Positions 1-19,101 of a DNA stretch of 51,595 bases are shown here, piece by piece. Made by a program: the position numbers and the translations under genes. Within the stretch, counting starts at the first letter, position 1. Each line of letters begins with the position of its first letter. The stretch is from Opitutia bacterium (GTDB lineage: Bacteria > Verrucomicrobiota > Verrucomicrobiia > Opitutales > JABJCN01), in NCBI GenBank assembly GCA_038125285.1, contig JAYPDO010000008.1, forward strand, positions 1 through 51,595. Direction: 5' to 3'. A model generated the notes under the pieces. The model was not told where the DNA came from. It searched no databases and saw only the letters and a list, made by a program, of their open reading frames with translations.

Positions 1-121
1 GGACATCCATCTTCGCGAACCCGATTTGGGCTTTGTAGAATTTACGTGCCAAGTCGGCTCCTGCAAAATTATGGAGCGAGAGTGCGGTCAGTAGGATTAG
101 GATTCTGGCGGGTGTTCTCAT
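1..121 (-). CDS. N-terminal fragment of a probable secreted hypothetical protein (continues past left edge)
   Basis: ATG at 119-121 on the minus strand. My hand translation is MRTPARILILLTALSLHNFAGADLARKFYKAQIGFAKMDV..., with a basic N-terminus and a hydrophobic core (signal-peptide-like). The frame stays open to position 1. It is too short for the ORF track. Confidence 0.35.
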   Translation of the reverse strand, partial: MRTPARILILLTALSLHNFAGADLARKFYKAQIGFAKMDV

Positions 122-218
122 GAGTGGTTGCGAGTAGCTTGTGGATCGGTTCATCCTGATCAACGGAAAAGAAAGGTTTGGGAAGGGATGGGTACTTGCA
201 GCCGTCATTATAGACTGA

Positions 219-820
219 TTACCACTTCCTTGAACAATTTCCCGCTCTCATACTCTTCGTGGAGGTTTTTTGCCCAAGTTCGTTCTCGGCCTGCCAGACA
301 ACATGGCGGCTGCCTTCCCAATGGTATTCGACATCCATTTTCAACCCGTGGTGGTAACCTCTTTTCACTATGTTGATGATCCCATGCTCGAAGGTGATCC
401 TGAGGGCTGGTTTCCGAGAAGAATGGTTGGTGCCTATTACCTCGGTCAAGGGTATCCTTAGTTCAGGGTCATCATAAAAGCGTCCTTCCTTTAGTAAAGT
501 TACTAACTTTCCCCATAGCGAAGGTTCACGGACTCGATCTTTTTCACCGGGCGGGACTCCCTAAATAAAAGCCCGTCCCAATTGCCGTAGTCGGGCCGGC
601 TCCTTTGCAGGACGCCCAGTTCCCCGTCCCTTTCGAAGACCAGGGATAGGTTCTGCTGCTTGTAGTCCTGTAGGATGTAGCTCCCTGCCCGATCCCCTAC
701 TCCTATCCACTTCTTGAACTTGGTGTCCTTGTTATGGATGCTGAAATTGGCCGGCTTGCCCGGAACTTTGAAGTGGCCAAGGTAGGTCACAGTTTGGGCG
801 GGGCAGAAGCCATCGGCAGG
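219..820 (-). pseudogene. decayed YwqK/MORN-variant repeat paralogue (no start, frame break near 500)
   Basis: ORFs 503-790 and 219-449 lie in different frames and both resemble the adjacent 225-aa gene. GHFKVPGKPANFSIHNKDTKFKKWIGVGDRAGSYILQDY matches KGMFKLRGNAKFNIYNKENQSSKWLKIGQRTGDYTLKSY. KRGYHHGLKMDVEYHWEGS matches KRGYKDGKKHGETVEWFPNG. There is an in-frame TAG at 821-823 with no ATG or signal peptide after it, and TAG-TAA at 500-505. Homology resumes in another frame (LKEGRFYDDPELRIPLTEVIG...). Confidence 0.55.
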
Positions 821-901
821 CTAGGCAAAAGAAAAGAGAGTCGGAAGGATGCCTCTGGTCACGCGGTTCAAATCGAGTTGCATGCCTGGGCACAAAAAAG
901 G

Positions 902-1579
902 TTATTCCAACGGCAGGTTCCGCTTGAATTGGTTTTTTTCGTACTCCCTCTTCGCGGTCAGTTTTCCATTTTGATCCCAATAAGACCAGACTCCCGTCCG
1001 CTGATTGTCATCGTAGTACATCTCGTATTTTTTTTGCCCGTTCGGGAACCACTCGACGGTTTCGCCGTGTTTTTTGCCATCTTTGTAGCCCCGTTTGTAC
1101 CAAGGTTTTCCAGTCGGGTAATCCTTAACCACACTGCCGCTGAAGGGCGTTTCTTCTTTTCCGAGTTCGTAGTATAAACCGTTCTTGAATCGGAGGTTGG
1201 TGGATTCGATCTCTGGACCCTTGCTTCCGCCGATCCCTCCAACGGGGTTTCCTGCCGCTTTCGCTTGTGCAAGGCCGAGGGTACCTTCTTCCCCGTCTGC
1301 GTTTTCAAAGATTAGGTTCCCCCCGTCCTCGTCATAGCTCTTAAGGGTATAATCCCCTGTCCGTTGGCCTATTTTCAGCCATTTGCTGGACTGGTTTTCC
1401 TTGTTGTAGATGTTGAACTTCGCATTTCCGCGTAGTTTGAACATCCCTTTGAATTGTAGGTTTTCCGCTGGGTCGAAGGCAGACAATTGCCCGGAAAATA
1501 CGGCCAATGAGAGGATTGAAAACACCTGCAGTGGGAGGCACAATTTGCCAAATAGGAGTTTTTGAGCTTTCATTAGCAT
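902..1579 (-). CDS. secreted YwqK-family (MORN-variant repeat) protein
   Basis: 225-aa ORF with an N-terminal hydrophobic leader (LCLPLQVFSILSLAVFSGQLSA). The C-terminal repeats are of the YwqK/MORN type: G-x-W-Y-KRGYKDGKKHGETVEWFPNGQKKYEMYYDDNQRTGVWSYWDQNGKL. Confidence 0.85.
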   Translation of the reverse strand: MLMKAQKLLFGKLCLPLQVFSILSLAVFSGQLSAFDPAENLQFKGMFKLRGNAKFNIYNKENQSSKWLKIGQRTGDYTLKSYDEDGGNLIFENADGEEGTLGLAQAKAAGNPVGGIGGSKGPEIESTNLRFKNGLYYELGKEETPFSGSVVKDYPTGKPWYKRGYKDGKKHGETVEWFPNGQKKYEMYYDDNQRTGVWSYWDQNGKLTAKREYEKNQFKRNLPLE

Positions 1580-1681
1580 TATTTTATGGGCAGCAAGTGG
1601 AATAGTGCAAGCCCCTGGTTGGATCCTGGGTTAAGGTTGGTGATACAAGAGGGTTATCACCGGTTATTGTCTGCTTTGAGT

Positions 1682-4600
1682 TCATGGTGCGGTGATACGG
1701 AGGCGGAGGAAAAGGGAAGTTCGCATACCGGCGATTTGTTTGCCCTGGATAGTTGTGGTGGTGTTGCCGTCTACGGTTTGGGTTGATAAAGTTTGGGTTT
1801 GGCCGGTTTGCCAGGCCTTGAGGTCGAAAGAAGATTCGGGGACGAAGTCCAAGTAGGTTGCGGATTCTGGCGATGTCCATGTTAGCTGGATGTAGCCTTC
1901 AGGGGATATTGTGGCTTGGGGGAGGTTTTTGGAGTAAGGATCCATGGGGTCGGCTCCGAAGGCAAATTCCAGAAGGTTTGGTAGGCCATCGTGGTCGGGG
2001 TCATCCAGGTAGGATTGGTCGAGGGAGGCGAAATGTGAGTTTTCCCAGTCATCTGGAAGTCCGTCGGAATCGTTGTCGTTGCCCTCGTAGGGTTCGCCAT
2101 CCCCCGGTGTTCCCCCGGTCACTGTACTGGCGTGCCAATTTGTGGCGATGGCAGGATCACGGGATGTCCTGAGCACGAGGGACTTCCCCCCTTTTGCGGC
2201 AGCTTGTGGCCAGGGTGCTTGGTTGTCGTATTTGAAATCCAGGAGGATGGAGCCGTCCGGCCCGGTAAGGCGGAGGTTTTCCCCTGCGTTGTTGAGTTTG
2301 CCTGCATATTGGCCTGCGATGTTGGCCGTGCTTCCGTGACGGAGTTCGAAGGCGGAAAGGTTGGACGCGAGAATCAAACGGGCACCAGGGTCGAGCACCA
2401 AGCCGTTTGGGAAGGGGAAGTCGATGCCGTCGGTAAAACGAAGGCCGTCTAGGTGAAGGGATTGGTGTTGGCTGGTGTTTTTGAGTTCGATGAACTCGAA
2501 GTCGCTGGCATCGAAACCTTGGTTAGTCTCTGCCTGGGTTGGTACTTTAGGGGCATAGTGGATCTCTGTGATGGCCAAGTTGGCCGGTGTCGGGATGGCT
2601 GGGTCGACGAGGAAGGTGGCTTGGTCGATAGCAGACCATTCGTTGCCAGATTTAGCGCGGGCGCTGACTTGGATGCTCGCGCCTTGGAGTGTGAATGCTT
2701 GGGTGTAGCGGCGGGCAGAGATGTCGAGGCCTCCTCCGGGGGAACGGGGGTCCTTGCCGTCCAAGGTGTAGTAGATGTCCCCGGTTTGCGAGGAGAGGCT
2801 CAGGGAATAACCAATCGGGACTTCACCTCCGCGTTGGGAGAAAGTAGGTGGGTCCAGGGTAGGGTAGGCCCCGGTAGCCCTTAGTTGTTGGATCACGACA
2901 TCCCTCCGGTTGGGAAAGTAGTTTTGGAGGAGGTTGTCCCGTTCGGCGACCCAGTCCTCGGAGGTGTAGGGTTGCGCCCTCTGGTTATCTCCCCATCGGG
3001 CGGATTCCGCGATGATGGCGCGTTCGATTTGGGCGGTTTTGTAGGCATAGTAGGCCGAGGACTTTTCAGGGGAGAGGACGCCTCCGTTGAAGAGGTGCTT
3101 GTAGGTGAGGTCGGCGAAGATGGCCCGGTAGTCGGGATGGGCCTTGAGTTGGTGGTGGATGCGGGTTGGCCCGCCGAGGTTGTCCCGGGTAGTGGCGATT
3201 TGGTTCAGCTCCTCCATGATGTGCTCGGCGTCCCAATGATGGTACTGCCATTTGCGTTCTGGGTCGGTGCGGTGGGTGGAGGCGTACCAGTTTTGGTGTC
3301 CCCAATCCGTGTTCCCAAGGTAGAAGTTCAGGAGCATGTAGTTAATGAATTGCCCGAGGTCCAGCATGGAGAGGACGGCATCGTAATTGGCTTGGATGGA
3401 GAGGTCTTGGTTGGCAGCGGAAACGAGGGCGAGATAGGAGTCGTTTGTCCCATGGACGACTGTGCTGGTTCGGTGTTTCATCACGTCGTAGTCGTCCGGG
3501 GATCCTCCCCTGTATTGGCGGACAAAGTTTTCGTCGGGCCGCTCGTGGAGGGTATGGAGACCCCAATAGAGGCCGTCGATGTAGAGGTGGATGTTGTAGC
3601 CGTGGGGGGAGTGCCCACCGAGTTGGCGATGGAGGTCGGATACGTATTGGTCTCGCAGATATTGGGCGCGCTGGCGCTGGAGGGTAGGGCTGGAGCTGCC
3701 TCCGTAAGACCAGACGTTGTTGAGGTGGGCATCGACGACGAGGGTATCAAATTCCTGGGCCGCACTTTCTCCGAAGACAGGGAATTCGAGCTTTGGCGGG
3801 CCGTATTCGGATGTGAACTTTAGTCGTAGGGAGAGTTTGTCCGTCTTCCAGCGGTTGACCGAGCTGCCGCCGACGACTTGGACGGATGCGTCGATTTGGA
3901 AACCGTCCTTGCCGTCTGGGAGGATGAGTTCCGCGGAGACAGGTTTTTCCACGCTTTCCCCCTTTGGGTAAATGCCTTGGGTCGCGTCGAAAAAGTCGTC
4001 CCGGTCGAGGACGAGGGAAAGGGTTGGCACGGATTGGAGGTCGTCCTCGATGTGGGTGCGCCAACGGGGGTCATCGACAATTTCCGGATCCATCGCGTAG
4101 TCGGCGGTGTGGCCGTTCCATGTGGAAGGGAATCCTGGCGGGACTATGGGTTGGCGGACGATATCCGCAGGGAAGAGGTAGGTCTGTGTATCGACATTGG
4201 TAGGAACGTAACCTGGCTTTGTGGCAATGGCGCGGAGGGTTGTGGTCGTGTCGATCCGAATGGGTTTTGTGTAAAGGGTACCATTTTGGTCTGAGGGGAG
4301 GGAACCGTCCGTCGTGTAATGGAAGGTCGCCTGGTCGGTCTTTGTCCCGATGACCAGGTCAAAGGGCTGGCTGAAGAAACCTCGTTTGTGGCTGAACTTG
4401 GTGTCCTGGACAATCCCAGCAACGCCGTCGCCGTTGGCTTCTCCTGGGGTAGGGACATCGAAAAAGCGGGGCTTTCCGGTGTTGTTGGCCAATCCGTAGG
4501 AAAATCCCTCCCTTTGAGTAGGGTAATTGTGAAACATTTGCACCATGTGGCCGTTTGGGTCAGTGAGGGAGAGGAACCCTCCTTCCTGGGATGACAGCTT

Positions 4601-7600
4601 GAAGGGCGCATGGAGTTCCACTTGGGGCGACGGGGATTTAGCGGATGCAAACACGACGAGGTAGCTTCCGGGGGCAAGTGATGTGCCGGGAGGGAAGATC
4701 CAGCGTGACGGTTCGTCTGGATCGTCAGTCAATGCCCATCCGGTGAGGTCTGCCGTGGAACCACCGGGGTTGTGGAGTTCGATCCAATCGGTGAAGTTTC
4801 CTTCGGCATCGGGGTAAACGTCCCGGTTTAATGCCATGAATTCCGTGACCAGGATGGGCGAGGAGGGCACTCCCAGTATTTCGTCCGTCCCAGGCGTGCC
4901 ACCAGCCACCAATGAGGCTTTCCAGGAGGACGGGCTTGAGTGGTCCGTTTCTGGCGAAAGCGGGGCAAGCACCATCGAATGCCCGGCATTGGCTGGCCAT
5001 GGCGGGTTGTTGCTATATTCCATCTCATGGATGGCAATCCCTGCGCCCAGGGACAACTTGATACGTTCCCCTGCATTGTCGAGTTTTCCTTTGAACTGGC
5101 CTGCTACAGGAAGCCCTGGGCCGTACCGGGATTCGAAGGCGGCTAGGTTGGCTACAAGCAGGGTAATTCCTCCCGAATCCAGCCTCGTTCCTTCTGGGAA
5201 ATTGAAATCGACCCCTTTGGTGAAGCGGACATCGGAGAGGTCAAGCGCGTTGCTTCCTACGTTTTTCAACTCGATGAACTCAAAGTCCGAAGTAGCGTAT
5301 CCCGCGAGCATTTCCTCCGTTGTGGCGGGTGCAGGATCGTAGTGGACCTCGGAAATGGCCAGGTTTTGCTGTAGGGTTGGCAGGGAAATGGGTGGCCCTG
5401 GAACGAATTGGACAGCCTTGGACCAATGGCTCCAACGTCCGGTATTGTCCTTGTGGCGGACACGCGCGCTGTATGTGCGGCCTTCAACCAAGCTACGGGC
5501 AGGGACACGGACAGTGCTGGAAAAGGTGGGTAATTCCCCAGAATCCCAGTCTGCATACCACTCCAGCACTGGCTTTGCCCCTCTTGTGAGTTCGGGGACT
5601 TCGATATCCCCGACTTCGGCGACCCTCCATTGCATGGCTGCCAAGGTGCCGTCGGCCTGGGGATCATTGAAGGCAGAGGACTGGAGGATTATCCCGTCCA
5701 GTGGTTGGCCGGAGTCCCCGACGTACGAGATCGCCGGGGTGAAGGGAATGTCCAGGTCGAGGGAAAGGTAGTCCAGATGTCCGGCACGCCCGCCGGAAGG
5801 CACATCGGGGCCGGTACTCCCTGTCCAACCCACGAAGGCAAATTCCTTCATGTCCTGCACTTTCCACTCCATTGTTCCATAGTCTTGGCTGCCTGCGCTG
5901 GCCGGGGCGTCTTTCCACCGGCCACGGTCAGCGGGGACAAAGTCCCTGATCTTGTCGGCAAGGCGGTCGACCATTGGGTTAATTACCCCTTCGGTCCAGA
6001 GGAGGTCGCGGAATTCGCGGATGAAGTTTTTGTAGTCCCGGACAAAATCCGGCTTGCCGCCGTTGGCCACGATGGCGGCGTTATGGGAATAATCGATCCC
6101 CGCCCCCCAGTTCGGCCCCCAGCTGGCGTCGGAATCCCATGGCAGGGTCCAAAGGCGGCCAAGGGGATTGCCCGGGTAGGGATTGAAGAACCAGGCGCGG
6201 TTCTTCGAATGGGAGTCTGCGGGCCGGACATCGTAATGACGGACGGCTTCGTTAATTGTGTGGTAGCGGAAGGACTTGTCGTAATTGACATGGATGTTGA
6301 GCCAGCTGTCGGAACGCTCGGGACGGAGATTGTTCCGGATGTTCTGGAAATCGGAGTCCCCGGTTGTGGATTTGGTGCCTTGGTGCCGCTTGACCAAGTT
6401 TCCGTCGAAGACCTGGTCCTTCAACTTGTAGAGGTTGCCGTCGGGCATGCGATGGGTTTTCAGGAAAGTGCCGTCGTAGTTTTCAAACACGAGTTGGAAT
6501 CCCTGGAAATCGCCGTTGTATTGGTCGGGCTGTTCTTCTGCGGTTTTGACGACCCTGAAATGGAACCACCACGTATGCGGGGCGGGGACGTCCACCATGT
6601 TCCAAAGCAGGGAGTTCATGGTCTCGGTGATGCCGAAGTTCCCGACCCCCTTGTTGTCTGACATTTTGCCAGTGTTGATGGTCCTGACCTTGTTGGGGAA
6701 GAGGTTCCCGTTGATGTCGCGGGGATGGAAGAGGTGGCCATGGTTGAAGCGGAACCGCATGCTGCGTTTGCCATTGGTGCCAGTCCTTTGGCTATAGCGG
6801 TCGTTGGCCTGCCGGAGCCGGTATTGGATGTGGTCATAGACGACGCCTTCGTAAACGAACGTGCCGAACCAATGGAACTCGCTCCGGGCGTCCTTATTCG
6901 TTTTCGGGATGCGGTCAGCTGGGTTGTAGCCGTAACACATGGCGTAGGCAGCAGGATCGGTGATGAGTTGGTAAACCGGGAGGCTCGTCATGACTTGGCG
7001 CGGATAGGTGTGCCCGGCGCCATCGGGATGGACGGAGTTTTGTGAGGCCACGTATTCTGGGACTCCATTGTACACGAAGTAGGCGAAGTTCAGTGAGGGG
7101 TCGTCCTGTTGTGGTGCGCGGGCCGCTTCCCCGTTTTTGTCCGTCGCGAAGATCCTGTAGCGCACGAGGGTACGGTTCGGTTGGTTGGGTAGTCTCGCTG
7201 TGTAGATGGACTCGCCTTGGGCAAAGTCGCGAGCCATTGGTACGATTTGCCAGTTAGCTGGGTCTTCGAAAGAGGGGTTGGCAGCGTGCGGATCCAGGGG
7301 GGCATTAAGGATTTCGGAAAGAGCCTTGGGTTGGTAGGCACTAAAATAGGAACCAGGCGGAACCACTTGATAGTGGAGTTCTACTGACTGGACAAGGTCG
7401 GTGTCAGAAACCTTGGCTTGGACAACCGGTTGTTCGAAATCGCGAGGTTGCTGTGGGGAATGGGATACCTTCCGGATTTGGGGTGGCGCATCGGCGGAAT
7501 AAACCGAGTTTTGGGCCGCAGGGGTAGGGGAGGACAAGCAAGGGCGCCAACTCCCGCCCAGCCCGTTGTCCAGGCCAGGGTTGATTAGTTCGAGGGAAGG

Positions 7601-8047
7601 CCCCTGGCCTCCAGGTGTGACCGGCCAGGGGAACTCGGATTTGTAGTCAACCTCGTCCACCTTGTTGCCTTCCTTATCCCTTAACGTGAGGTTTTCGCCT
7701 TCGTTCGCCAGGCTTCCTGACTGGAATAGCCCGAACGGGTCTGCCCGGTAGTTTGCCCGGTAGTGGGCCTTGTTTTCAGCAATGGCCAAGTACCCCGCAG
7801 CAGCGATCGAAGATCCTTCAGGAAAGGTATAGGAGATGCCCGAAGAGAAATACCACCCGGAAAGGCTGATGTCGGAGCCACTGGGGTTATGGATCTCTAC
7901 AAATTCAGTCAGCGAGGAAGGTGAATCGGGGTCAAAGTGGATTTCGTTGATGACTACTTGGGCAGGCGCGGGGACAGTGGCCAGGATGCCTGCCAACAAG
8001 GCAACACAACGGGTCAAAACATTTAAAATCGGGCAAATTCTACGCAT
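1682..8047 (-). CDS. giant secreted lamin-tail-domain (LTD) / CotH kinase-like multidomain protein (2,121 aa from internal ATG)
   Basis: Four LTD-like modules: VVINEIHFDPD..FVEIHNPSGSDISLSGWYF; AISEVHYDP..FEFIELKNVGSNALDLSDVRF; ILVTEFMALN..WIELHNPGGSTADLTGWAL; AITEIHYAP..FEFIELKNTSQHQSLHLDGLRF. Two CotH-like cores: KRSMRFRFNHG; VPTLSLVLDRDDFFD..GIYPKG..KLSLRLKF..YGPPKLEFPVF. Chitobiase-C-like motifs: FHYTTDGSLPS, IYYTLDGKDPRS. Asp-rich tail: NDNDSDGLPDDWE...DDPDHDGLPNLLEF. I set the start to ATG 8045-8047, which gives the signal peptide MRRICPILNVLTRCVALLAGILATVPAPAQ. Confidence 0.9.
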   Translation of the reverse strand: MRRICPILNVLTRCVALLAGILATVPAPAQVVINEIHFDPDSPSSLTEFVEIHNPSGSDISLSGWYFSSGISYTFPEGSSIAAAGYLAIAENKAHYRANYRADPFGLFQSGSLANEGENLTLRDKEGNKVDEVDYKSEFPWPVTPGGQGPSLELINPGLDNGLGGSWRPCLSSPTPAAQNSVYSADAPPQIRKVSHSPQQPRDFEQPVVQAKVSDTDLVQSVELHYQVVPPGSYFSAYQPKALSEILNAPLDPHAANPSFEDPANWQIVPMARDFAQGESIYTARLPNQPNRTLVRYRIFATDKNGEAARAPQQDDPSLNFAYFVYNGVPEYVASQNSVHPDGAGHTYPRQVMTSLPVYQLITDPAAYAMCYGYNPADRIPKTNKDARSEFHWFGTFVYEGVVYDHIQYRLRQANDRYSQRTGTNGKRSMRFRFNHGHLFHPRDINGNLFPNKVRTINTGKMSDNKGVGNFGITETMNSLLWNMVDVPAPHTWWFHFRVVKTAEEQPDQYNGDFQGFQLVFENYDGTFLKTHRMPDGNLYKLKDQVFDGNLVKRHQGTKSTTGDSDFQNIRNNLRPERSDSWLNIHVNYDKSFRYHTINEAVRHYDVRPADSHSKNRAWFFNPYPGNPLGRLWTLPWDSDASWGPNWGAGIDYSHNAAIVANGGKPDFVRDYKNFIREFRDLLWTEGVINPMVDRLADKIRDFVPADRGRWKDAPASAGSQDYGTMEWKVQDMKEFAFVGWTGSTGPDVPSGGRAGHLDYLSLDLDIPFTPAISYVGDSGQPLDGIILQSSAFNDPQADGTLAAMQWRVAEVGDIEVPELTRGAKPVLEWYADWDSGELPTFSSTVRVPARSLVEGRTYSARVRHKDNTGRWSHWSKAVQFVPGPPISLPTLQQNLAISEVHYDPAPATTEEMLAGYATSDFEFIELKNVGSNALDLSDVRFTKGVDFNFPEGTRLDSGGITLLVANLAAFESRYGPGLPVAGQFKGKLDNAGERIKLSLGAGIAIHEMEYSNNPPWPANAGHSMVLAPLSPETDHSSPSSWKASLVAGGTPGTDEILGVPSSPILVTEFMALNRDVYPDAEGNFTDWIELHNPGGSTADLTGWALTDDPDEPSRWIFPPGTSLAPGSYLVVFASAKSPSPQVELHAPFKLSSQEGGFLSLTDPNGHMVQMFHNYPTQREGFSYGLANNTGKPRFFDVPTPGEANGDGVAGIVQDTKFSHKRGFFSQPFDLVIGTKTDQATFHYTTDGSLPSDQNGTLYTKPIRIDTTTTLRAIATKPGYVPTNVDTQTYLFPADIVRQPIVPPGFPSTWNGHTADYAMDPEIVDDPRWRTHIEDDLQSVPTLSLVLDRDDFFDATQGIYPKGESVEKPVSAELILPDGKDGFQIDASVQVVGGSSVNRWKTDKLSLRLKFTSEYGPPKLEFPVFGESAAQEFDTLVVDAHLNNVWSYGGSSSPTLQRQRAQYLRDQYVSDLHRQLGGHSPHGYNIHLYIDGLYWGLHTLHERPDENFVRQYRGGSPDDYDVMKHRTSTVVHGTNDSYLALVSAANQDLSIQANYDAVLSMLDLGQFINYMLLNFYLGNTDWGHQNWYASTHRTDPERKWQYHHWDAEHIMEELNQIATTRDNLGGPTRIHHQLKAHPDYRAIFADLTYKHLFNGGVLSPEKSSAYYAYKTAQIERAIIAESARWGDNQRAQPYTSEDWVAERDNLLQNYFPNRRDVVIQQLRATGAYPTLDPPTFSQRGGEVPIGYSLSLSSQTGDIYYTLDGKDPRSPGGGLDISARRYTQAFTLQGASIQVSARAKSGNEWSAIDQATFLVDPAIPTPANLAITEIHYAPKVPTQAETNQGFDASDFEFIELKNTSQHQSLHLDGLRFTDGIDFPFPNGLVLDPGARLILASNLSAFELRHGSTANIAGQYAGKLNNAGENLRLTGPDGSILLDFKYDNQAPWPQAAAKGGKSLVLRTSRDPAIATNWHASTVTGGTPGDGEPYEGNDNDSDGLPDDWENSHFASLDQSYLDDPDHDGLPNLLEFAFGADPMDPYSKNLPQATISPEGYIQLTWTSPESATYLDFVPESSFDLKAWQTGQTQTLSTQTVDGNTTTTIQGKQIAGMRTSLFLRLRITAP

Positions 8048-8155
8048 TCCCGGCCTTCGGCTATAAAAGGGTGTGCGAGAACTTACGCCCGCGCCAATGA
8101 AGCGCAAGCTGGAATCCATACACTGTGGCGGGGACAACGCTGTCCGGCTTGCCCC

Positions 8156-10444
8156 TTAATCCAGAGGGGCAGGCTCGTAGTCGGAGGGGATTACCCAACC
8201 GGTACCCATCTTTTCCCCAGACATGTACTTTTCGTAGAAATCGTTCCAATTCCCGACGAAGGGGAATTCTTCGAATACATGGCCTTTCCCCTCCATCCGG
8301 GCGTCCCCTTGGGCCTTCAGTTCTGCCTCCAATTGTTGACGCAACTTTTGGGCTTGGGGGGCATGGGTTGGATTTCCAGCCAAGTTTTCTACGCAGTCCG
8401 GGTCGCACTTGGTGTTGAAAAGTTCCTCCCCCGGCCTTTTTCCGAAGTTCATTTGCCAGAAACTGGGCTCCCCGTCCCTCCGTTGTTGGAGGATCAAGGA
8501 TTTTGTGGGGCCAGCGTCGCAGTTCAAGTATCCAGTCTCCGGATTGCCGATTGGCCAGCGTGAGGGTTCGTAGTTCCGTAGGTAAAGCCATTGCCCGTCC
8601 ATGATCCCCCGGATGGGGTAACCCCAGTTGTGCGGACGCCCGACATCGTGCCTCTCCTTGCCGACCAGGACATGGTCACGGGAAGGGATGAGGTGGCCGG
8701 AGCCCGGGTGGTTGAAGATTTCTTGCAAAGATCGGCCCGAAACTGGCTCCATGATGCCACCTCCAGGAGTGACCCCGGCAACGCCGAGGAAGGTTGGGGC
8801 CAAGTCTACGAAACTTACAAAGTCCTCCACCTTGCGCCCATTGCCTTTGATCCCCCCTGGCCACATGATTGCCAAGGGGATGTGGTTGGAGTACTCATAG
8901 GCTTGCCCTTTGCAACGGGGGAAAGGCATTCCGTGGTCGGAGGTGGCGACAACCAAAGTGTTGGCAAGCAGGCCAGCCTGCTCCAACTGGTCCAAGATTT
9001 GTCCAAGGTGGTTGTCAAAATGCTCCACTTCGAATGCATAATCTAGCATGTCGTTGCGGACTGTCCCATTGTCCGGCCAGAAGGATGGGACGTGCCCGAT
9101 ATCGGATGGTTTCTTCCCATGCTTTGCGCCGACTCCGGCTTCATATCCCCTGTGGGGCTCCGTAGCACCATACCAAAAGCACCATGGTTCACCTCCCTTT
9201 TCCGCTTTCATGAATTCAGCAAAATTTCCCGCATAATCATTGTTGCTGATAGCCTTGGCGGGAGGTGCTTTTTTCTTCGATTGGAATGGCCTGCCGGTGA
9301 TCAACCTTTTGTTGCCGGAAGCATCATTGGCAATCCCTGGCGCCCAGCCTTTACCCGTGTAGCCGGTGAAGTATCCCGCGGCCTCCAGTTGCTCCATGAA
9401 ACTTCCGTACTTTGGGGGGAAGAAGTTCATGTGGTTGGCCGCCTCCCCGAGTTGCCAGGAATAACGGCCTGTTAAAATCGCCGCCCTGGACGGGGCACAT
9501 TTTGCGTTCGGGGTGTAGGCACGGGTGAACAGGATCCCGTCCTTGGCGACCCTGTCAAAAGCGGGTGTATTTACCCACTTGCAACCGTACGCACTTGCAT
9601 GGCCGAAGGACCAGTCGTCCGCAATGGCGAAAAGGATGTTGGGGCGTGGCTTCGATACAGCGGACTGGAGCCCTTTCATTGCCTCCGCATAACGCCGGCC
9701 AAGTTCCCTGGCGCTTTCCGCGCTGAAATGTACCTTGTCGCCTTTGTCCCCCAGACCCTCCGCACTGGCGAAGGCAGTGTTGGCTACTTTCAGGGGTAAT
9801 TCCCTGTGGGCTTTGTCGACCATTGCCTTGGGTTCCGGCCATTCACTGAAGATCCCCATTTGCCCGGCCACGAAGGGTAGCCCTGGGGCTCCGAATTCCT
9901 TACGGAACCTAGCTACCACATCATGCAGGCGGGCCTCATATAATCCAGCTTTGGCGGTATTTGAATCGGATTCCCCCTGGTGCCAAATAATTCCTTTCAA
10001 CGTGCCTTTCCCTAGGGCCACTTTCGCACGGGCTAGGGTATCGTCCCATGGATGGCCTTTGGTCTGGCCGTGGTATCCGCCAGGAACCCATGTCTCGATG
10101 GGCGAGCCTCCATGGGCACAGGGCACCAAGCCAATGACCACTTCCGGTCCCGCCGCCTTCAGCATGCCGAGGCCGAAGGACTTGCCTGGGCCGACCCCGG
10201 CGCTGGGTTTGTCAAAATGAAGCGGGTCCACTGCGGGTACCCATCCATTGGCTTTGTCCAGCATGAACAGGCGGGGATCGACAATCTTGTCCTTCTCCTC
10301 GATCTTCCCCCGTCCAGCCATGTTCGACTGCCCGGCCAGGATGTATATGTGGAAGTTTTCCTTCGGGATTTCTGGGAGTTGGCCGTAGGAGATACCGGCA
10401 AAAATGGCTGGGACAAGGATGGATAATCGGTTTCGCATGGTCAT
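8156..10444 (-). CDS. fusion protein: SASA/sialate-O-acetylesterase-like domain + formylglycine-type sulfatase domain
   Basis: The N-terminal half has [13 protein letters not shown] and IIWHQGESD (SASA/DUF303-type esterase motifs). The C-terminal half has [11 protein letters not shown]...[18 protein letters not shown] (sulfatase C-x-P-x-R) and ATSDHG. The start was trimmed to M10/M12 (10444/10438), giving the leader [21 protein letters not shown]. Confidence 0.9.
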
Positions 10445-10519
10445 TCGGTGTTTCGGTACAAAAGGGTACAATTGACTGGTCGGGAAGTTTTCAATCGCGC
10501 CGGGATCTGGACGCTGGCT

Positions 10520-11161
10520 TCATACTTCCAGGACTTCATCCCAATCCAGTCCATAATCTTCGGATAAGGTGGACACCAGCATCCCCGCGCTCCGTTCCTT
10601 GCAGGTGTTTTGCAACATCCAAATGGCCATTTTCGTGTTCTCTGGATCCAGGTGGCTGAAGGGCTCGTCCAGCAAGAGGAATTGGAAAGGCTGGAGCAAT
10701 GCCCGGAGGATTGCGAAGCGTTGTTGCTGGCCGTAGGATAGCTTGCCGCATGGATTATCCAAGTAGGGATGGACTCCCAGTCCCTGGGCTTTCGATTCCA
10801 TGTCGACCGGGTCCGTGGGTACATCTTGCAAGGCGCTTTTGAGCTCCAGGTTTTGCCGTGCCGTGAGTTGGGGCAAGAGCCTCAGGTCTTGGAATACGAT
10901 CCCGAAAGGTCCGCTCCGGAGGGTTGCCCAGTCCTGCGGCATAAAATCACGCCCATCCTTGCCATCGACCGTGAACCGGCCGGTATAGTTTTTCCTGATC
11001 CCGCAAAGGATATGCAGGAACGTACTTTTCCCCCGGCCTGATGTCCCCTTGAGCAGGTAGTTTTTTTTTGTGTCGATGACCAGGTTGTCTCTCCAGACGG
11101 TACCTTCCACTGTGTTCAATGGCAACCCTTCGGGACGCAGGGAGTGGGCGTGGATTTCCAT
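10520..11161 (-). CDS. stand-alone ABC-type ATP-binding protein (single NBD, FtsE/LolD size) with non-canonical motifs
   Basis: Walker A is GTSGRGKST, the Q-loop is VFQD, the signature is LSYGQQQR and Walker B is LLLDEPFSHLD. The H-loop position reads VSTLSED. The gene starts 15 nt after the upstream YwqK-type gene ends. Confidence 0.85.
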   Translation of the reverse strand: MEIHAHSLRPEGLPLNTVEGTVWRDNLVIDTKKNYLLKGTSGRGKSTFLHILCGIRKNYTGRFTVDGKDGRDFMPQDWATLRSGPFGIVFQDLRLLPQLTARQNLELKSALQDVPTDPVDMESKAQGLGVHPYLDNPCGKLSYGQQQRFAILRALLQPFQFLLLDEPFSHLDPENTKMAIWMLQNTCKERSAGMLVSTLSEDYGLDWDEVLEV

Positions 11162-11176
11162 TCGGAAGGCGGTTGG

Positions 11177-12712
11177 TCAGGGAAGGATGTTCCCTTTGGC
11201 GTCCCATTTGCGCTCAAGGCAGGTTTCCCCGTCTGCATAGACCGTTTGCGTGGCGATTGTCCCGTCCGGATACCATATGGAGTGCTTCCCGTGCCTGTTC
11301 CCATTCTTGTAATACCCTTCGATTTTCAGGACGCCGGTTTGGTAGTAGTCGATCGCTTTTCCGGTGAAGGGGGTATCCTCCCCGAACTCATAGAACTTGT
11401 GGTTCTCCCTTTGAAGGATGTGGGCTACCCCGACCGTCCTGGTGTCAATACGATGTTCATTATATTCCGGATGGGAATTCAACCATTGGGAAGCATGTTC
11501 CGAACCAGGGGTGGGTTTGGTTTGGATATGGAGGTTACGGACAACGTGTTGGGAGGCAACTTTCCCATTGGCCGCCGTAATGGCAAGGTGCCTCGGATCC
11601 GACGGGTATGCCGGGGAAGGGAACTCGATCACCTGTGAACCGTCCAGCTTGACCACAATGTTGTCCAAGTCCGCGATGATCCGGAGGTGCCTCCAATCCT
11701 TACCGCTGCTGGGCGAAGCATTGGAGCGGGATACCCGTTTGCCGTCCGGGTCGAACAGGCTTATTCCTTTCCACCGGCTGTTGGTCACTAACTGGAGGGT
11801 GTACCCGCCTGTTCCCGGTATCATGCCCGGATCCTCCTCGATTCCCGGCCCGAATTTCGGTACGTCCTTACAACCAAAGAGCACCGCCATTGCGGAACTC
11901 CCGAAATTGAGGGCGTTGGACTTGGTCGGTATGGCAAGATATTCGAGGGAAAGTTCGAAGGGCGGGTTGACCGGAGGGGTTAGCCAGATGTGCGCAGTTG
12001 ATTTTTTATTTTTTCCGTTTGTCAGCTCCAGTTCGGGTTTTCCATCCACATCGGTCATTTGCGGATAACCCGGGTTGTTGGATTGGAAGGGTTCGTACTG
12101 CTGCTTTTCCAGGATCCCTGAGAAGAGCTGCGATGGATTTTGGTCTTGTTCCAATTCGTAGTCCGGGGATTTCCGGGTGAGGGCAAGTTTTCCTTGGAAA
12201 TAAATCCTGTGGGACGAGATGTTCCCCACCTTGTCGTAAACGATGAACGGGCCGTGGATCTTCCCATGGTCAAAGAAAATGTCCATTTGCCGCCTCCCGT
12301 CGTCATGGAACGAGGTCATTTTCCCATGGCGCCCCCCTTTTTCGTAATGGATGGCGAACTGGAGCTTTCCGTTTTTGTGCCAATTTTCTTCCCGCCCTTG
12401 CTGGACTCCATGGTTGTACCTGGCGCAGAACATCTTGTTGCCGTTCTCATGGTATATGGTGACCAACCCGTGCGGTTTGCCATCAATGATGTGGGCATCG
12501 TAACGGGGTGTGCCATCCTCAAAGGTCGAATAAGCCCGGCCTGTAAAGGGTTCGCTCTCGGTGTCGAAGAAGTAAATATTTTCCCATTTCACCAACATTT
12601 CCCCGTCCACCGTCCTCTCTGCGTTCTGGGGAATGCCATCCTTTGCCTCCTCGCTGGCAAGCAGCGAAACCAGGGGCAAAAGTGCCAAGGCGATGGGATA
12701 CCGTAGAAGCAT
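11177..12712 (-). CDS. secreted YwqK/MORN-variant repeat protein with central beta-sandwich (LamG/concanavalin-like?) region
   Basis: Leader MLLRYPIALALLPLVSLLASEEA. N-terminal repeats: FTGRAYSTFEDGTPRYDAHIIDGKPHGLVTIYHENGNKMFCARYNHGVQQGREENWHKNGKLQ. C-terminal repeats: FTGKAIDYYQTGVLKIEGYYKNGNRHGKHSIWYPDGT. The middle ~200 aa is beta-rich (WRHLRIIADLDNIVVKLDGSQV). Confidence 0.8.
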   Translation of the reverse strand: MLLRYPIALALLPLVSLLASEEAKDGIPQNAERTVDGEMLVKWENIYFFDTESEPFTGRAYSTFEDGTPRYDAHIIDGKPHGLVTIYHENGNKMFCARYNHGVQQGREENWHKNGKLQFAIHYEKGGRHGKMTSFHDDGRRQMDIFFDHGKIHGPFIVYDKVGNISSHRIYFQGKLALTRKSPDYELEQDQNPSQLFSGILEKQQYEPFQSNNPGYPQMTDVDGKPELELTNGKNKKSTAHIWLTPPVNPPFELSLEYLAIPTKSNALNFGSSAMAVLFGCKDVPKFGPGIEEDPGMIPGTGGYTLQLVTNSRWKGISLFDPDGKRVSRSNASPSSGKDWRHLRIIADLDNIVVKLDGSQVIEFPSPAYPSDPRHLAITAANGKVASQHVVRNLHIQTKPTPGSEHASQWLNSHPEYNEHRIDTRTVGVAHILQRENHKFYEFGEDTPFTGKAIDYYQTGVLKIEGYYKNGNRHGKHSIWYPDGTIATQTVYADGETCLERKWDAKGNILP

Positions 12713-12914
12713 AAGATGATCACAATGTATAAAGTGCTTACGGAATCAAGGCATGTTCGCTGGATAATTGCATCCGGGTTGGGACGACTTGAAGATTTTA
12801 CCGATGGGGCATCCCGATAGGGCGGCGGGTTCCCCTTGCGTGAATGGAGGATTGACCAGTGCCTCGTTATTCTCGATATGTACCTACACTACTTTTCCAA
12901 ACATAGAAATAACG

Positions 12915-13979
12915 ATGACGCACGAACCTTCCTTCCGAAATAAAACCAAGCATTTTACTTGCCTACTCCCAATTGCCCTACTTGCCCTTGCCGCTTGCAC
13001 CGGCAAGCAAGACGTCGGAGAGACGCAACCAGCAGGGGGTGGGGAGCCCGAAAAAACAATCAGAGTGGCCTTTGTTACCAATATGATTGCCGACTTCTGG
13101 AATATCGCCAAGGCCGGGTGCCGTGATGCAGAGAAGGACTTGCATGTCAAAGTTGAGGTGAAGATGCCCAGCCAAGGCACGGTCGAGAAGCAAAAGCAAA
13201 TCGTGGAAGACCTCATTTCCTCCGGTATCAATGGCATTGCCATTAGCCCCCTGGATGCGGACAACCAAGTCGCCTGGTTGGACGAAATCGCATCGAAAGT
13301 TCCCCTCATCACCCATGATTCGGACTGTCCTGGATCCAAACGCCTTTGCTACATCGGCATGGACAATTACAAGGCCGGGCGCATGTGCGGGGAGCTTGTT
13401 AAGGACGCGATTCCTGGAGGAGGGGAAGTGATGCTGTTCATCGGCCGCCTGGAGCAAGATAATTCAAAATACCGCCGCCAAGGCGTTATCGACGAACTCA
13501 TGGGGCGCCCAGTGCCTGAAAACTTGGCTAACTTGGCTTATGACCCGGAAGGCCAGCCGGTTGTAGGTGAAAAGTTCACAGTCCTGGATACCCTGACGGA
13601 CCAGGGGAAGCCCGAAGTTGCCAAGCAGAAAGCTGCGGACGCCATCAATGCCTATCCCCAGATGAAAGCGATGGTTGGCCTGTTCGAGTACAATCCCCCC
13701 GCCTGTTACCAAGCCCTGAAGCAAGCAGGGAAACTCGGCGCGATCGAGCTGATTGGCTTTGATGAGAACAATGTGACTTTGCAAGGGATCAAGGATGGTA
13801 CAATCAAAGGCACTGTCGTCCAAAACCCCTACGAATACGGTTACCAATCTGTGCAGATCCTCAAGGACATCCTGGAGGGGAACGAGCCTCGCACTTACAT
13901 CGACATCCCCCCCAGGAAAATTACCGAAGAAAACGTGGATGATTTTTGGGCCGACCTGAAAGCCAAGAAAGAAGGCTGA
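12915..13979 (+). CDS. sugar ABC transporter substrate-binding lipoprotein (RbsB / periplasmic-binding-protein type I-like)
   Basis: The internal ATG at 12915 gives MTHEPSFRNKTKHFTCLLPIALLALAAC with a lipobox (LAAC). The body has IRVAFVTNMIADFWN...GINGIAISPLD...YIGMDNYKAGR, typical of ribose/monosaccharide binding proteins. Confidence 0.9.
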   Translation: MTHEPSFRNKTKHFTCLLPIALLALAACTGKQDVGETQPAGGGEPEKTIRVAFVTNMIADFWNIAKAGCRDAEKDLHVKVEVKMPSQGTVEKQKQIVEDLISSGINGIAISPLDADNQVAWLDEIASKVPLITHDSDCPGSKRLCYIGMDNYKAGRMCGELVKDAIPGGGEVMLFIGRLEQDNSKYRRQGVIDELMGRPVPENLANLAYDPEGQPVVGEKFTVLDTLTDQGKPEVAKQKAADAINAYPQMKAMVGLFEYNPPACYQALKQAGKLGAIELIGFDENNVTLQGIKDGTIKGTVVQNPYEYGYQSVQILKDILEGNEPRTYIDIPPRKITEENVDDFWADLKAKKEG

Positions 13980-14003
13980 GCGCCCCTTCCCGGCGAGTTT
14001 TCC

Positions 14004-15527
14004 ATGGACAGCCCCTCCGGACAGGATGCCCCCCCACGGCTGGAGGTGAGGAAAGTCGGGAAGGAATTCCCTGGTGTCCGTGCTTTGCATGAAGTCGACC
14101 TTGTCCTACGCCAAGGCGAAGTCCTTGCCCTGATAGGGGAAAACGGGGCGGGCAAAAGCACGCTCATGAAAATCCTTGCCGGGGTCCAACCCCCGGGGAG
14201 TGGCCAAGTCCTGGCCAACGGGTGTCCGAACCAAGTGTTTTCTGTCCAGGAAGCCATGCGCCATGGGATCTCGCTAATCCACCAGGAGCTGAACTTGGCG
14301 GACAACCTGGATGTCGGGGCCAATGTCTACCTCGGGCGCGAACCGCTCAAAAACGGCCTGATCGACAAGGCCAAAATCCGTGAAGACTCTAAAAAGTACC
14401 TGGATGCCGTAGGGCTTGACGTCGACCCCAATACACTGGTGTCGCAACTGACCATCGGTAGGCAACAAATGGTGGAAATTGCCAAGGCCCTGTCCATGGA
14501 CTCCAAAGTCCTGATCATGGACGAGCCGACTTCCAGCCTTTCCCAGGCGGAAACCGAGAACCTCTTCAAAGTGATCAAAGACCTCCGCGCCAAAGGGGTC
14601 AGCATCATTTACATTTCCCACCGCCTTGGGGAGGTCATCGAGTTGGCCGACCGGGTGACTGTGTTGCGGGACGGGGAAAATGCAGGGGAACTTTCCAGGG
14701 AGGAAATCAACCATGACAACATGGTCCGGATGATGGTCGGGCGGGATATCTCCAGCTACTTCCAACGCAATCCCCATGCCCCAGGGGCAGTCGTCCTCGA
14801 AGCCCGCAAATTGAGGACGCCTGCGAACCCTGACCATGAACTCGATTTTTCCATCCGTTCAGGCGAAATCGTCGGCGTTGCAGGGTTGGTCGGGGCGGGA
14901 AGGACGGAAATGTTGGAAGCCCTTTTCGGAGTTAAACCTGCATTGGGCGGGGAAATTCTTGTCCGGGGCAAAGCAACCGGGGTTTCGACCCCCCGTGATG
15001 CCATCAAGGCCGGGTTGGCCCTTGCACCGGAAGACCGTAAATCCCAAGGCCTTGTCATCGAAATGAGTGTCCGTGAAAACATTTCCCTTGCCTCCCTCCG
15101 CAGGGACAGCAAGCCGGGCGGTTTCCTGGACTTTCAAAAAGAGGCGGGTACCAGTAGCCAAATGATCAGGAGGATGGGGGTAAAAACCCCGGGCGACGGC
15201 CAAATCATCCGATACCTTTCCGGGGGCAACCAACAAAAGGTCGTCCTTGGCAAGTGGTTGTCGATGGAACCGGGAATCCTCTTGCTCGACGAGCCTACCC
15301 GGGGGATCGACATCGGGGCAAAACGCGAGATCTACGCATTGATGGAGGAGCTGGCATCCGGTGGGGTGGCGATCCTGTTTGTCTCCAGTGAAATGGAGGA
15401 GGTACTTGGAATGGCCGACCGGGTCTTGGTCATGCACGAAGGCAGGATTTCAGGGGAACTTCAGCGCGAAGAAATGTCCGAAGAAGCCATTATGAGGCTG
15501 GCTGTGGGCAAAACCAGTGAACCATAA
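14004..15527 (+). CDS. sugar ABC transporter ATP-binding protein (tandem NBDs, RbsA/MglA-like)
   Basis: 507 aa. First NBD: GENGAGKSTLMKILAG, LTIGRQQMVEIAKAL, LIMDEPTSSL. Second NBD: LSGGNQQKVVLGKWL, LLLDEPTRGIDIGAK. Confidence 0.93.
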   Translation: MDSPSGQDAPPRLEVRKVGKEFPGVRALHEVDLVLRQGEVLALIGENGAGKSTLMKILAGVQPPGSGQVLANGCPNQVFSVQEAMRHGISLIHQELNLADNLDVGANVYLGREPLKNGLIDKAKIREDSKKYLDAVGLDVDPNTLVSQLTIGRQQMVEIAKALSMDSKVLIMDEPTSSLSQAETENLFKVIKDLRAKGVSIIYISHRLGEVIELADRVTVLRDGENAGELSREEINHDNMVRMMVGRDISSYFQRNPHAPGAVVLEARKLRTPANPDHELDFSIRSGEIVGVAGLVGAGRTEMLEALFGVKPALGGEILVRGKATGVSTPRDAIKAGLALAPEDRKSQGLVIEMSVRENISLASLRRDSKPGGFLDFQKEAGTSSQMIRRMGVKTPGDGQIIRYLSGGNQQKVVLGKWLSMEPGILLLDEPTRGIDIGAKREIYALMEELASGGVAILFVSSEMEEVLGMADRVLVMHEGRISGELQREEMSEEAIMRLAVGKTSEP

Positions 15528-15554
15528 GAAAATACCCAACCCATCTCCAAAACC

Positions 15555-17039
15555 GTGAATATCAAAGTCTTAGGAATCGGAATCCTCCTCATCGTCCTCT
15601 GGGTAATCCTGGCCGTCGCCGTACCCGAGTCATTCTTGGCCGGGAACAATATTGAAAACCTCCTCCGGCGGACAGCCATGTACGGGATTCTGGGCATCGG
15701 GGTGTCCTTTGTCATCATCACGGCCGGGATCGATCTGTCCATCGGTTCCATGGTCTGTCTGAGTGCCTGCTTCCTGACTATTTTCCTGAAGGTCGACTAC
15801 CTCCCGGCCGGAGGCTCGGAAGTCTTGTCCGTAGCCCCTGCCTCCTCGGAGATCATCATCCAAGGACAATCTGGAGGCTTTGCAAATGGGGATAAAGTCC
15901 GGTACTTCGGCGGCCGCAGGGCCAGGAGCGCGCTGGTGACTGTGGTCTCTGCAGAAAGGACAACCCACAAGTCGGAGGGCGGGAGGGACATCCCGGCTAC
16001 CCGGCTTAAGGTCGAAGGCCTTACCGGGAACGCAGACCGTCGGGGGACGGTTGCCCGCGTCTTCCCTGTGTTGGAGGTTATTCCTGATGGGGATGGCAAC
16101 GCATCGGTCTCGATTGGTGGTGGGCATCCATTGGCTCAACGGGACCGCATCACCTTCATCCATCCGGAATCAGGCCTATCAGACAAACAGGTGGTTTCAG
16201 CCCGGATTTCAGGGGACAAGACTGAATTGTCGTTGGACAGCAGTGTAGGAACCGTGACCAACGAGTGGTTTGCCATGCCCGTCAATCGCCATCAGAAAAT
16301 GCCGGTACTGATGGCCTTGATTTTGGTATTGGGAATAGGGTTGGTTCTTGGATGCTTCCATGGGTTCCTGGTCACGAAAGTCAAACTCCAGCCCTTTGTC
16401 GTCACCCTCTGCGGGCTTTTGTTTTACCGCGGGGTCTCCCGTTGGAGCGTGGACGACCAGACGGTAGGGTTGGGCAACGAATACGATGCCTCCCTAGCCC
16501 CCATTGCCTCGGGGAAACTGGCCATCACCCTGGATTTCGGGATCCCTTACCCCTTCTTCATCCTCATCGTGGTGGCCATACTTGCGGCCATCTTCTTGAA
16601 CAGGACAATCTATGGCCGCTACATGCTGGCCTTGGGGCGGAACGAGGAGGCTGCCAGACTCTCCGGGATCGATACATCCAGGATGACCGTCGTCGCCTAT
16701 GTCATCTGCACTTGCCTGGCCGCCCTCGGGGGGATCCTGTTTGCCATCGATTCCAACTCCGTCGCGCCTTCCAGCTTCGGCAACTTCTTCGAGCTATACG
16801 CCATCGCCGCCGCAGTCCTGGGAGGATGCAGCTTGCGGGGTGGGGAAGGGAGCATCCTCGGCGTGGTAATCGGTACTGCGGTAATGCAGACTTTGTACAA
16901 CCTGATCATCCTCCTGAAAATTTCCGACACCTTGGAGTTTGCGATCATTGGCGCGGTCATCCTGGCCGGCGTGATCGCGGATGAAATGATCAAACGTGCG
17001 GTTACCAAGCGCCGCCAATCCAAGGCTGCCACAGCATGA
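15555..17039 (+). CDS. sugar ABC transporter permease (RbsC/BPD_transp_2-like) carrying a ~160-aa internal insertion
   Basis: GTG start. N-terminal TM segments plus the C-terminal core (LCGLLFYRGV..., GRYMLALGRNEEAARLSGI, FELYAIAAAVLGGCSLRGGEGS) are typical of ribose-type permeases. Residues ~80-245 are hydrophilic and have no counterpart in ~320-aa RbsC. Confidence 0.88.
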   Translation: MNIKVLGIGILLIVLWVILAVAVPESFLAGNNIENLLRRTAMYGILGIGVSFVIITAGIDLSIGSMVCLSACFLTIFLKVDYLPAGGSEVLSVAPASSEIIIQGQSGGFANGDKVRYFGGRRARSALVTVVSAERTTHKSEGGRDIPATRLKVEGLTGNADRRGTVARVFPVLEVIPDGDGNASVSIGGGHPLAQRDRITFIHPESGLSDKQVVSARISGDKTELSLDSSVGTVTNEWFAMPVNRHQKMPVLMALILVLGIGLVLGCFHGFLVTKVKLQPFVVTLCGLLFYRGVSRWSVDDQTVGLGNEYDASLAPIASGKLAITLDFGIPYPFFILIVVAILAAIFLNRTIYGRYMLALGRNEEAARLSGIDTSRMTVVAYVICTCLAALGGILFAIDSNSVAPSSFGNFFELYAIAAAVLGGCSLRGGEGSILGVVIGTAVMQTLYNLIILLKISDTLEFAIIGAVILAGVIADEMIKRAVTKRRQSKAATA

Positions 17040-19088: not shown

Positions 19089-19101
19089 GGATTTTCCCAG
19101 C

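Follow-up and report, generated by a model that had tools for sequence, protein, structure and literature searches.

Gene content of the block

We analyzed a 51,595-nucleotide stretch of DNA from an uncultured estuarine Opitutia bacterium (GenBank assembly GCA_038125285.1, contig JAYPDO010000008.1, positions 1–51595 of the forward strand; hereafter the window), focusing on a block of ~12.5 kb in which six genes, all encoded on the minus strand, fill the region from 12712 down to 219. The block encodes two proteins with MORN_2 repeats and a decayed third copy, a short ATP-binding cassette (ABC) ATPase, a fusion of a SASA-type esterase with a sulfatase, and a giant protein combining lamin tail (LTD) and CotH domains. 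We refer to the first two genes as pair A, to the following two as pair B and to the remainder as unit C:

11177–12712, minus strand: MORN511, 511 amino acids (aa), first gene of pair A, exported, with MORN_2 repeats at the N- and the C-terminal end
10520–11161, minus strand: NBD213, 213 aa, short ABC ATPase (nucleotide-binding domain, NBD), second gene of pair A
8156–10444, minus strand: SASA-sulfatase fusion, 762 aa counted from the ATG, secreted, first gene of pair B
1682–8047, minus strand: LTD/CotH giant, 2121 aa counted from the ATG, secreted, second gene of pair B
902–1579, minus strand: MORN225, 225 aa, small secreted MORN_2 protein
219–841 (end at ~841), minus strand: MORN225 pseudogene, a decayed tandem paralogue with an open reading frame (ORF) remnant of 95 aa at 503–790

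The intergenic gaps calculated from these coordinates are 15, 75, 108 and 102 nt, with ~80 nt preceding the remnant. The common orientation, the gene order, the gaps and the reading frames had already been described in an initial annotation of this DNA, and ORF coordinates together with Pfam domain matches confirmed them. Its assignment of secretion signals to every product except the ATPase was likewise upheld, as inspection of the sequences revealed hydrophobic signal-type N-termini on all the other block proteins. Every gene junction is spanned by contigs from four estuary metagenome runs, and an independent contig from the European Nucleotide Archive (locus L030) displays the identical gene order with proteins 95–99% identical; the block is therefore real and no assembly artefact. 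The closest named relatives are marine and estuarine metagenome-assembled genomes (MAGs) of Opitutia and Opitutales. Exact look-ups with three of the window proteins retrieved no record, and neither Rfam nor tRNA scans gave a hit in the window. A row of six co-directional genes is in itself nothing unusual in bacterial genomes.

Conservation of gene order in relatives

The initial annotation had suggested that the block is a single module and proposed a neighborhood search across related genomes. The outcome of this search largely speaks against it, as the full block was found only in L030, the 95–99% identical strain (95% for the ATPase), and only the sub-pairs A and B are conserved in relatives beyond this strain.

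For pair A, a MORN protein of ~510 aa together with the ATPase is kept in four lineages with gaps of 13–29 nt, and the genes downstream differ between them. Orthologues of MORN511 (37–67% identity) are located directly upstream of the short ATPase gene in L031, L038 and L044. In L031–33, MORN521 lies 18 nt upstream of the ATPase gene (67% and 60% identity to the window's proteins, respectively), accompanied by a divergent sugar importer and then by a convergent SBF transporter. In L038–43, MORN509 and the ATPase (52% and 49%) are followed by a convergent sulfatase that is unrelated to the fusion. The loci L044–46, originating from TARA and other marine assemblies, contain in contiguous order the importer on the opposite strand, MORN507, the ATPase, a PRK gene on the opposite strand, a 397-aa permease and a 253-aa MORN protein, where MORN507 and the ATPase are 37% and 48% identical to the window's proteins. 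Finally, the ATPase (45%) directly precedes a 454-aa permease with the new Pfam families PCD-like and Transporter_C in L034–37, from a Verrucomicrobia MAG; the L044–46 permease is a member of this permease family as well.

Pair B has a separate distribution. We scanned for the fusion in one genome per species with flanks of up to 10 kb, which yielded 29 loci encoding SASA-sulfatase relatives, six of them full-length fusions at 63–68% identity. Running tblastn with all block proteins detected no homologue of the LTD/CotH giant, of the short ATPase or of MORN511 and MORN225 in any of the 29 loci. A sister clade of the fusion carries a TonB-dependent receptor downstream and a PSCyt2/PSD1 plus DUF1501 pair upstream. 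Such PSCyt2/PSD1 (DUF1549/DUF1553) and DUF1501 pairs were also noted near sulfatase loci at 6350–9796 in L004 and L008, 14365–18149 in L049 and 10499–14687 in L038. Overall, the SASA-sulfatase fusion recurs in at least nine Opitutia lineages.

The adjacency of fusion and giant was observed in two further loci. In L048, a 761-aa fusion (72% identity) is positioned immediately upstream of an orthologue of the giant (75%) in the same orientation, 329 nt apart, and L049 has the same arrangement with a 759-aa fusion (66%), a giant of 64% identity and a gap of 312 nt. Because the window, L048 and L049 share this adjacency, fusion and giant constitute a conserved neighbor pair in three lineages. No MORN or short ATPase gene was found nearby in L048 and L049, where the giant is followed by unrelated genes in convergent orientation. 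By tetranucleotide composition, L031 clusters with L048 (r = 0.94; both come from one sample) and L038 clusters with L049 (r = 0.90), suggesting that each of these couples belongs to one lineage and hence that pairs A and B are unlinked there.

We thus consider it likely that independent units came to lie side by side recently, in the lineage of this uncultured estuarine Opitutia bacterium only, and that the block is not one system.

Pair A: the MORN protein and the short ATPase

MORN511 matches Pfam MORN_2 with an E-value of 8.4e-17. The middle part of the protein had initially been described as a beta-sandwich domain. The underlying match to the 3-keto-disaccharide hydrolase family (DUF1080) is below the Pfam cut-off (24.2 versus 26.8 bits), and hhalign against the window's true member of this family returned a probability of 0.8%, so that we rejected the hydrolase label and regard the beta-sandwich assignment as unsupported. 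The single-sequence AlphaFold2 (AF2) model of MORN511 was unusable with a pLDDT of 33, and a metagenome scan with the MORN511 alignment returned two loci only, one of which was known beforehand.

NBD213 was identified by Pfam as ABC_tran (3.6e-24) and is a member of a well-populated family of ~212-aa proteins. It contains the Walker A motif GTSGRGKST (39), the Q-loop FQDLRL (90), the signature LSYGQQQR (141) and the Walker B motif LLLDEP (162). In the alignment of 12 family members (A2), Walker A, Q-loop, signature and Walker B including the catalytic glutamate are kept, and the H-loop histidine is absent in 12/12. At the H-loop position the family shows vSLGE in place of vTHd; further peculiarities are an invariant D-loop histidine (FSHLD, within LLLDEPFSHLD) and a tyrosine in the signature (LSYGQ, within LSYGQxQR). 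The best PDB matches by sequence were YtrE, PsdA, MacB, LolD and YbbA, and NBD213 scores far under the NCBIfam equivalog cut-offs for LolD (83 versus 308), FtsE (93 versus 265) and MacB (77 versus 966).

A type VII permease 16 kb away from the ATPase

The ATPase had been termed an orphan, a description that holds locally but fails genome-wide, as its homologues in L034–37 and L044–46 adjoin a permease gene and the window itself holds a copy of this permease ~16 kb from pair A, outside the 12.5-kb block. Three genes are of relevance there:

29090–30274, minus strand: type VII (MacB/LolCE/FtsX-fold) ABC permease according to fold model and homology, predicted membrane partner of NBD213
28207–29079, minus strand: MORN290, 290 aa, Pfam MORN_2 (3.9e-10), probable lipoprotein
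30553–31254, plus strand: P-loop gene of the PRK/uridine-kinase family (Pfam PRK), divergent from the permease

For the window ORF at 29090–30334, Pfam gave only a weak FtsX match, and the start at 30274 was placed by alignment with 395-aa homologues. The protein matches the L036 permease, encoded next to an ATPase homologue, with a BLASTP E-value of 1e-34, and its homologues all carry PF28574, PF28560 and PF28576. By sequence it has no match in the PDB. Its AF2 model (pLDDT 80) comprises a helix at 11–44, a mixed alpha/beta domain at 53–252 and helices at 261–393. A Foldseek search of the PDB returned 48 matches at E ≤ 0.001, each to a type VII ABC permease or to the periplasmic domain of one, with LolE/LolC, MacB, BceB, HrtB, YtrF, YbbP and FtsX as the top matches and E-values down to 4e-12. 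The model thus depicts a predicted MacB-like fold with four transmembrane (TM) helices, the first two of which (TM1 and TM2) flank a large periplasmic domain.

MORN290 starts 10 nt downstream of the permease and has a signal sequence ending in LLGMWGC, followed by a proline-rich linker and MORN_2 repeats. Permease-MORN adjacency is kept in L047 (56% identity) and in L044/45 (52%). The PRK orthologue, detected by tblastn at 54% identity in L044–46 and at 59–69% in L047, sits between ATPase and permease in L044–46. The order PRK–permease–MORN290 in the window equals the right half of the L044–46 arrangement, and L047 exhibits the same order with a 79% identical permease and a following 995-aa protein. 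The window counterpart of this 995-aa protein (24680–27667, minus strand; no Pfam match; 59% identity in L047) is found 540 nt downstream of MORN290, and since the same order recurs in L047 it may belong with the permease-MORN pair.

The permease, MORN290 and PRK genes (28207–31254) probably make up the part of the ATPase's system that pair A lacks; in L044–46 they adjoin the ATPase gene without interruption. The adjacency of ATPase and permease genes in L034–37 as well as in L044–46 suggests that NBD213 and the permease form one complex. Unit A (12712–10520) would accordingly supply the ATPase to a type VII ABC system of the MacB/LolCDE/FtsEX kind whose genes are split over two sites, with the permease (29090–30274) and the MORN lipoprotein (28207–29079) as its partners in this genome. 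ATP hydrolysis by an ATPase dimer would drive movements of the permease's periplasmic domain, and by analogy to FtsEX-EnvC and LolCDE-LolA the two periplasmic MORN proteins may either be acted upon by these movements or sense them.

NBD213 and MORN511 could alternatively be a self-contained unit, for example a regulatory or non-transport ATPase, independent of the 29090–30274 permease, in which case the ATPase found beside a permease in other genomes would be a different paralogue. The MORN-ATPase pair is indeed the most tightly conserved adjacency (four lineages, gaps of 13–29 nt), no permease is present inside the fetched flanks in three of the four lineages, and the H-loop histidine is missing. 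However, MORN511 is secreted and the ATPase cytoplasmic, so that a direct two-protein complex would need a membrane partner; both pairs are contiguous in L044–46 at 48–52% identity to the window's proteins (37% for MORN507); and in the window neither ATPase nor permease has another local partner. We consider this alternative improbable and retain the split ABC system for unit A.

Pair B: the esterase-sulfatase fusion and the LTD/CotH giant

Pfam identified the fusion as SASA (7.4e-60) and Sulfatase (7.9e-42), with an SGSH_C domain also present. Its motifs GQSNM (38), HQGESD (155) and CAPSR (316; the formylglycine motif C/S-x-P-x-R) are intact. The nearest solved relatives are the S1_8A sulfatase 9bb9 (5e-35) and the esterase 1zmb (7e-31), the sulfatase half also resembling SGSH-like enzymes. 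By sequence, the protein is thus predicted to be both an S1 formylglycine sulfatase and a SASA/SGNH-like carbohydrate esterase.

The giant contains LTD (1.2e-58) and CotH (2e-30) domains in addition to Fn3_assoc and CHB_HEX_C_1. It is internally duplicated with the layout [LTD – CotH – Ig-like – LTD] x2 and has an Asp-rich C-terminal region:

N-terminal half (aa): LTD 26–136, CotH 511–736, Ig_Rha78A_N-like 832–882, LTD 894–970
C-terminal half, first part (aa): LTD 1077–1170, CHB_HEX_C_1/Fn3_assoc 1223–1290
C-terminal half, second part (aa): CotH 1462–1716, CHB_HEX/Fn3_assoc 1741–1798, LTD 1820–1935

The two CotH stretches score 106.8 bits against a Pfam cut-off of 23.8, and all four LTD domains are above threshold. 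Neither the giant nor its second CotH domain retrieved a meaningful match when searched by sequence against the PDB, and no match to solved CotH structures was obtained. In Planctomycetota and Verrucomicrobiota the LTD/CotH family runs to thousands of proteins, and orthologues of the giant exist at 63–75% identity. The orthologue in L050 (63%) has different neighbors, namely a plain sulfatase, a small MORN gene 4.6 kb upstream, a Pkinase-FGE fusion and a second giant. In this locus (5907–21391) the two LTD/CotH giants are arranged in tandem with the Pkinase-FGE-sulfatase fusion gene (869 aa) between them, and a small MORN_2 gene, a cytochrome c-domain protein and a sulfatase are located upstream.

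The fusion-giant adjacency in L048 and L049 makes it plausible that pair B is a secreted glycan-processing or adhesion pair. Of the earlier proposal of a glycan-processing or adhesion module, this narrower version is supported, and its extension to all six genes is not. Unit B (10444–1682) would most likely act on glycans bearing acetyl and sulfate groups, either on the cell surface or beyond it; the enzyme may remove these groups, and the giant may attach to the polymer or the surface or alter it.

Unit C: MORN225 and its decayed duplicate

MORN225 consists of about three MORN_2 repeats and a private N-terminal domain, which is covered by only 3–5 clusters among 1.84 billion cluster representatives, all other matches being confined to the repeats. 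None of the loci L048, L049 and L050 has a MORN225 gene downstream of the giant, indicating that MORN225 is a lineage-specific gene outside pair B. The remnant next to it, initially annotated as a YwqK pseudogene at the end of the block, is indeed a decayed MORN225 paralogue, as tblastn detected 36% identity to MORN225 over 111 aa. An in-frame stop interrupts its signal-peptide region, and the reading frame changes after 503, at a double stop located at 500–505. L030 also carries a decayed MORN225 paralogue. Unit C (1579–219) is probably a young MORN gene with a decayed duplicate that arose by local duplication.

YwqK of Bacillus subtilis is the immunity protein of the LXG toxin YwqJ, and the proteins described here share the MORN_2 repeat (PF07661) with it. 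The name "YwqK family antitoxin" given to MORN_2 proteins in the NCBI style, and the decayed tandem duplicate, a frequent feature of immunity-gene arrays, would suit a polymorphic-toxin or defence locus in which the MORN_2 proteins act as YwqK-type immunity proteins. We rejected this reading as very improbable: no toxin-like gene or domain occurs among the neighbors, all three MORN proteins have export signals, unlike the cytoplasmic YwqK, and PADLOC gave no match for the MORN proteins and only partial P-loop matches for the ATPase. Instead, the MORN proteins here are conserved beside ABC components. The initial annotation had further assumed that YwqK-type proteins bracket the block and assist in exporting its enzymes. 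This assumption does not agree with the distribution of the two genes, as MORN511 goes with the ABC system and MORN225 is absent beside the orthologues of the giant.

Transcription and weighing of a single module

No intrinsic terminators or sigma-70-like promoters were detected in the gaps, and their overall counts were at or below shuffle expectation. The four gap sequences fold no better than shuffled controls (z-scores of −0.3 to −0.7). Contigs of 150–235 nt from salt-marsh metatranscriptomes match MORN225 (921–1093), the ATPase (10583–10733) and MORN511 (11180–12071), and none of them spans a junction. MORN511, the ATPase and MORN225 are thus expressed in situ by close relatives.

These data bear on the possibility that the block is one co-regulated surface glycan or adhesion module, whose secretion or assembly is served by the flanking YwqK/MORN proteins and the ATPase. 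Its co-directional genes with short gaps and no detectable terminators, the signal sequences on all products but the ATPase, the transcript fragments for three of the genes and the retention of the arrangement in L030 and in four metagenome samples are all consistent with such a module. Nevertheless, the halves are separate in every more distant relative examined and the block occurs only in a near-identical strain; moreover, the ATPase's own permease lies elsewhere and MORN225 is missing beside the orthologous giants. We therefore regard a single module as unlikely, though marginally less so than a self-contained MORN511-ATPase unit, and favor a recent juxtaposition of independent units.

Several observations weigh against this preferred interpretation or parts of it. 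Given the co-directional orientation, the short gaps and the lack of terminators and promoters, the genes could now form one transcript in this lineage, and their juxtaposition is stable across the four metagenome samples. The sampling of genomic context comprises about 50 loci. The ATPase-permease pair in L034–37 has no MORN neighbor, so that the MORN association is clade-limited, and as the ATPase family is devoid of the H-loop histidine, normal ATPase cycling is not assured. Finally, the proposed ATPase-permease and fusion-giant links derive from genomics.

Neighboring genes and composition

Upstream of the block, one further transport system was identified:

12768–17039, plus strand: CUT2-type sugar ABC importer (Pfam Peripla_BP_4, ABC_tran x2, BPD_transp_2), comprising a binding protein, a double ATPase and a permease

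The importer is divergent from MORN511, and the same divergent arrangement is found in L030, L031, L038 and L044. It thereby neighbors pair A in four lineages, in three of which a Mala_s_1-like gene, with or without an SDR gene, is inserted between importer and pair A; it is absent from the window. The TTG start of the importer at 12768 is probably too far upstream, judging from the L030 gene call of 354 aa.

The GC skew on the plus strand amounts to 0.19–0.27 over window positions 1–8000 (giant) and 28000–31000 (permease/MORN290). This strong positive skew means that the coding strands of the giant, the permease and MORN290 are markedly C-rich compared to the rest of the window. The region 42296–51220 represents a typical carbohydrate-catabolism neighborhood of the Planctomycetota-Verrucomicrobiota-Chlamydiota (PVC) group, with a sulfatase (45730–47157), two members of the 3-keto-disaccharide hydrolase family (47164–48048 and 49561–50232), a GFO/IDH/MocA oxidoreductase, a xylose-isomerase-like TIM barrel and an esterase.

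Comparison with known systems

All components of the block belong to known superfamilies, as judged from their sequences. The putative ABC system resembles the type VII systems MacAB-TolC, LolCDE, FtsEX-EnvC, YtrEF, BceAB, HrtBA and YbbAP in having a separate short ATPase and a permease whose large periplasmic domain is preceded by a single helix at the N-terminus and followed by three helices at the C-terminus; the predicted permease fold matches LolE/LolC, MacB, BceB, HrtB, YtrF, YbbP and FtsX. Accessory periplasmic or lipoprotein genes in the same locus are a further feature in common with FtsEX-EnvC and LolCDE-LolA. In contrast to these systems, the ATPase scores far under the LolD, FtsE and MacB cut-offs and its family lacks the H-loop histidine, the accessory proteins are of the MORN_2-repeat type, and the ATPase and permease genes are 16 kb apart. 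In our literature searches we found neither a MORN protein described with an ABC/FtsX-type system nor any account of the fusion-giant pair or of the LTD/CotH proteins that PVC bacteria encode.

The fusion has the CxPxR, GQSNM and HQGESD motifs and the SGSH_C domain in common with S1 sulfatases (9bb9; SGSH-like) and SASA/SGNH esterases (1zmb), but differs in that both predicted activities are fused in one secreted 762-aa protein. CotH is an atypical Ser/Thr protein kinase of the B. subtilis spore coat (PMC7821199). With two CotH and four LTD domains, the giant is related to CotH kinases and to the "lamin tail domain-containing proteins" of PVC bacteria, sharing an architecture common to thousands of PVC proteins. 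Unlike B. subtilis CotH, it is secreted, 2121 aa long and internally duplicated, has no spore-coat context and has no sequence match to solved CotH structures.

Lastly, we compared the block with the polysaccharide utilisation loci and sulfatase-rich clusters of carbohydrate-active enzymes of marine Verrucomicrobiota (PMC8857213). Both contain a secreted sulfatase and esterase, and the wider region of the window is likewise rich in sulfatase, 3-keto-disaccharide hydrolase-like and GFO/IDH/MocA genes, whereas the block has no glycoside hydrolase, no SusC/D pair and no TonB receptor. The sister clade of the fusion does adjoin a TonB-dependent receptor.

Implications

In this locus, co-directionality and short gaps did not mark a system, which corrects an over-reading of such gene rows. 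Taken together, we tentatively propose, as a possibility rather than an expectation, that Opitutia possess an undescribed type VII ABC "mechanotransmission" system, composed of an H-loop-less ATPase, a permease of the MacB/LolCE fold and two exported MORN_2 partners, and that, separately, fusion and giant may function together as a unit of two proteins. Of the two MORN_2 partners, one is predicted to be soluble with an unassigned middle domain, and the other to be a lipoprotein with a proline-rich linker.

MORN_2 proteins are routinely mislabelled as YwqK antitoxins. As putative conserved partners of a divergent MacB/Lol-like ABC machine, they could explain the role of this machine in the envelope, and if this is true it would be the first envelope function for MORN_2 or "YwqK-like" proteins. 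For the LTD/CotH giants of Planctomycetota and Verrucomicrobiota we know of no established role. Their neighborhood with an esterase-sulfatase points to acetylated, sulfated glycans in a host group of poorly studied marine polysaccharide degraders, and, if true, would provide the first functional handle on these abundant proteins of PVC bacteria.

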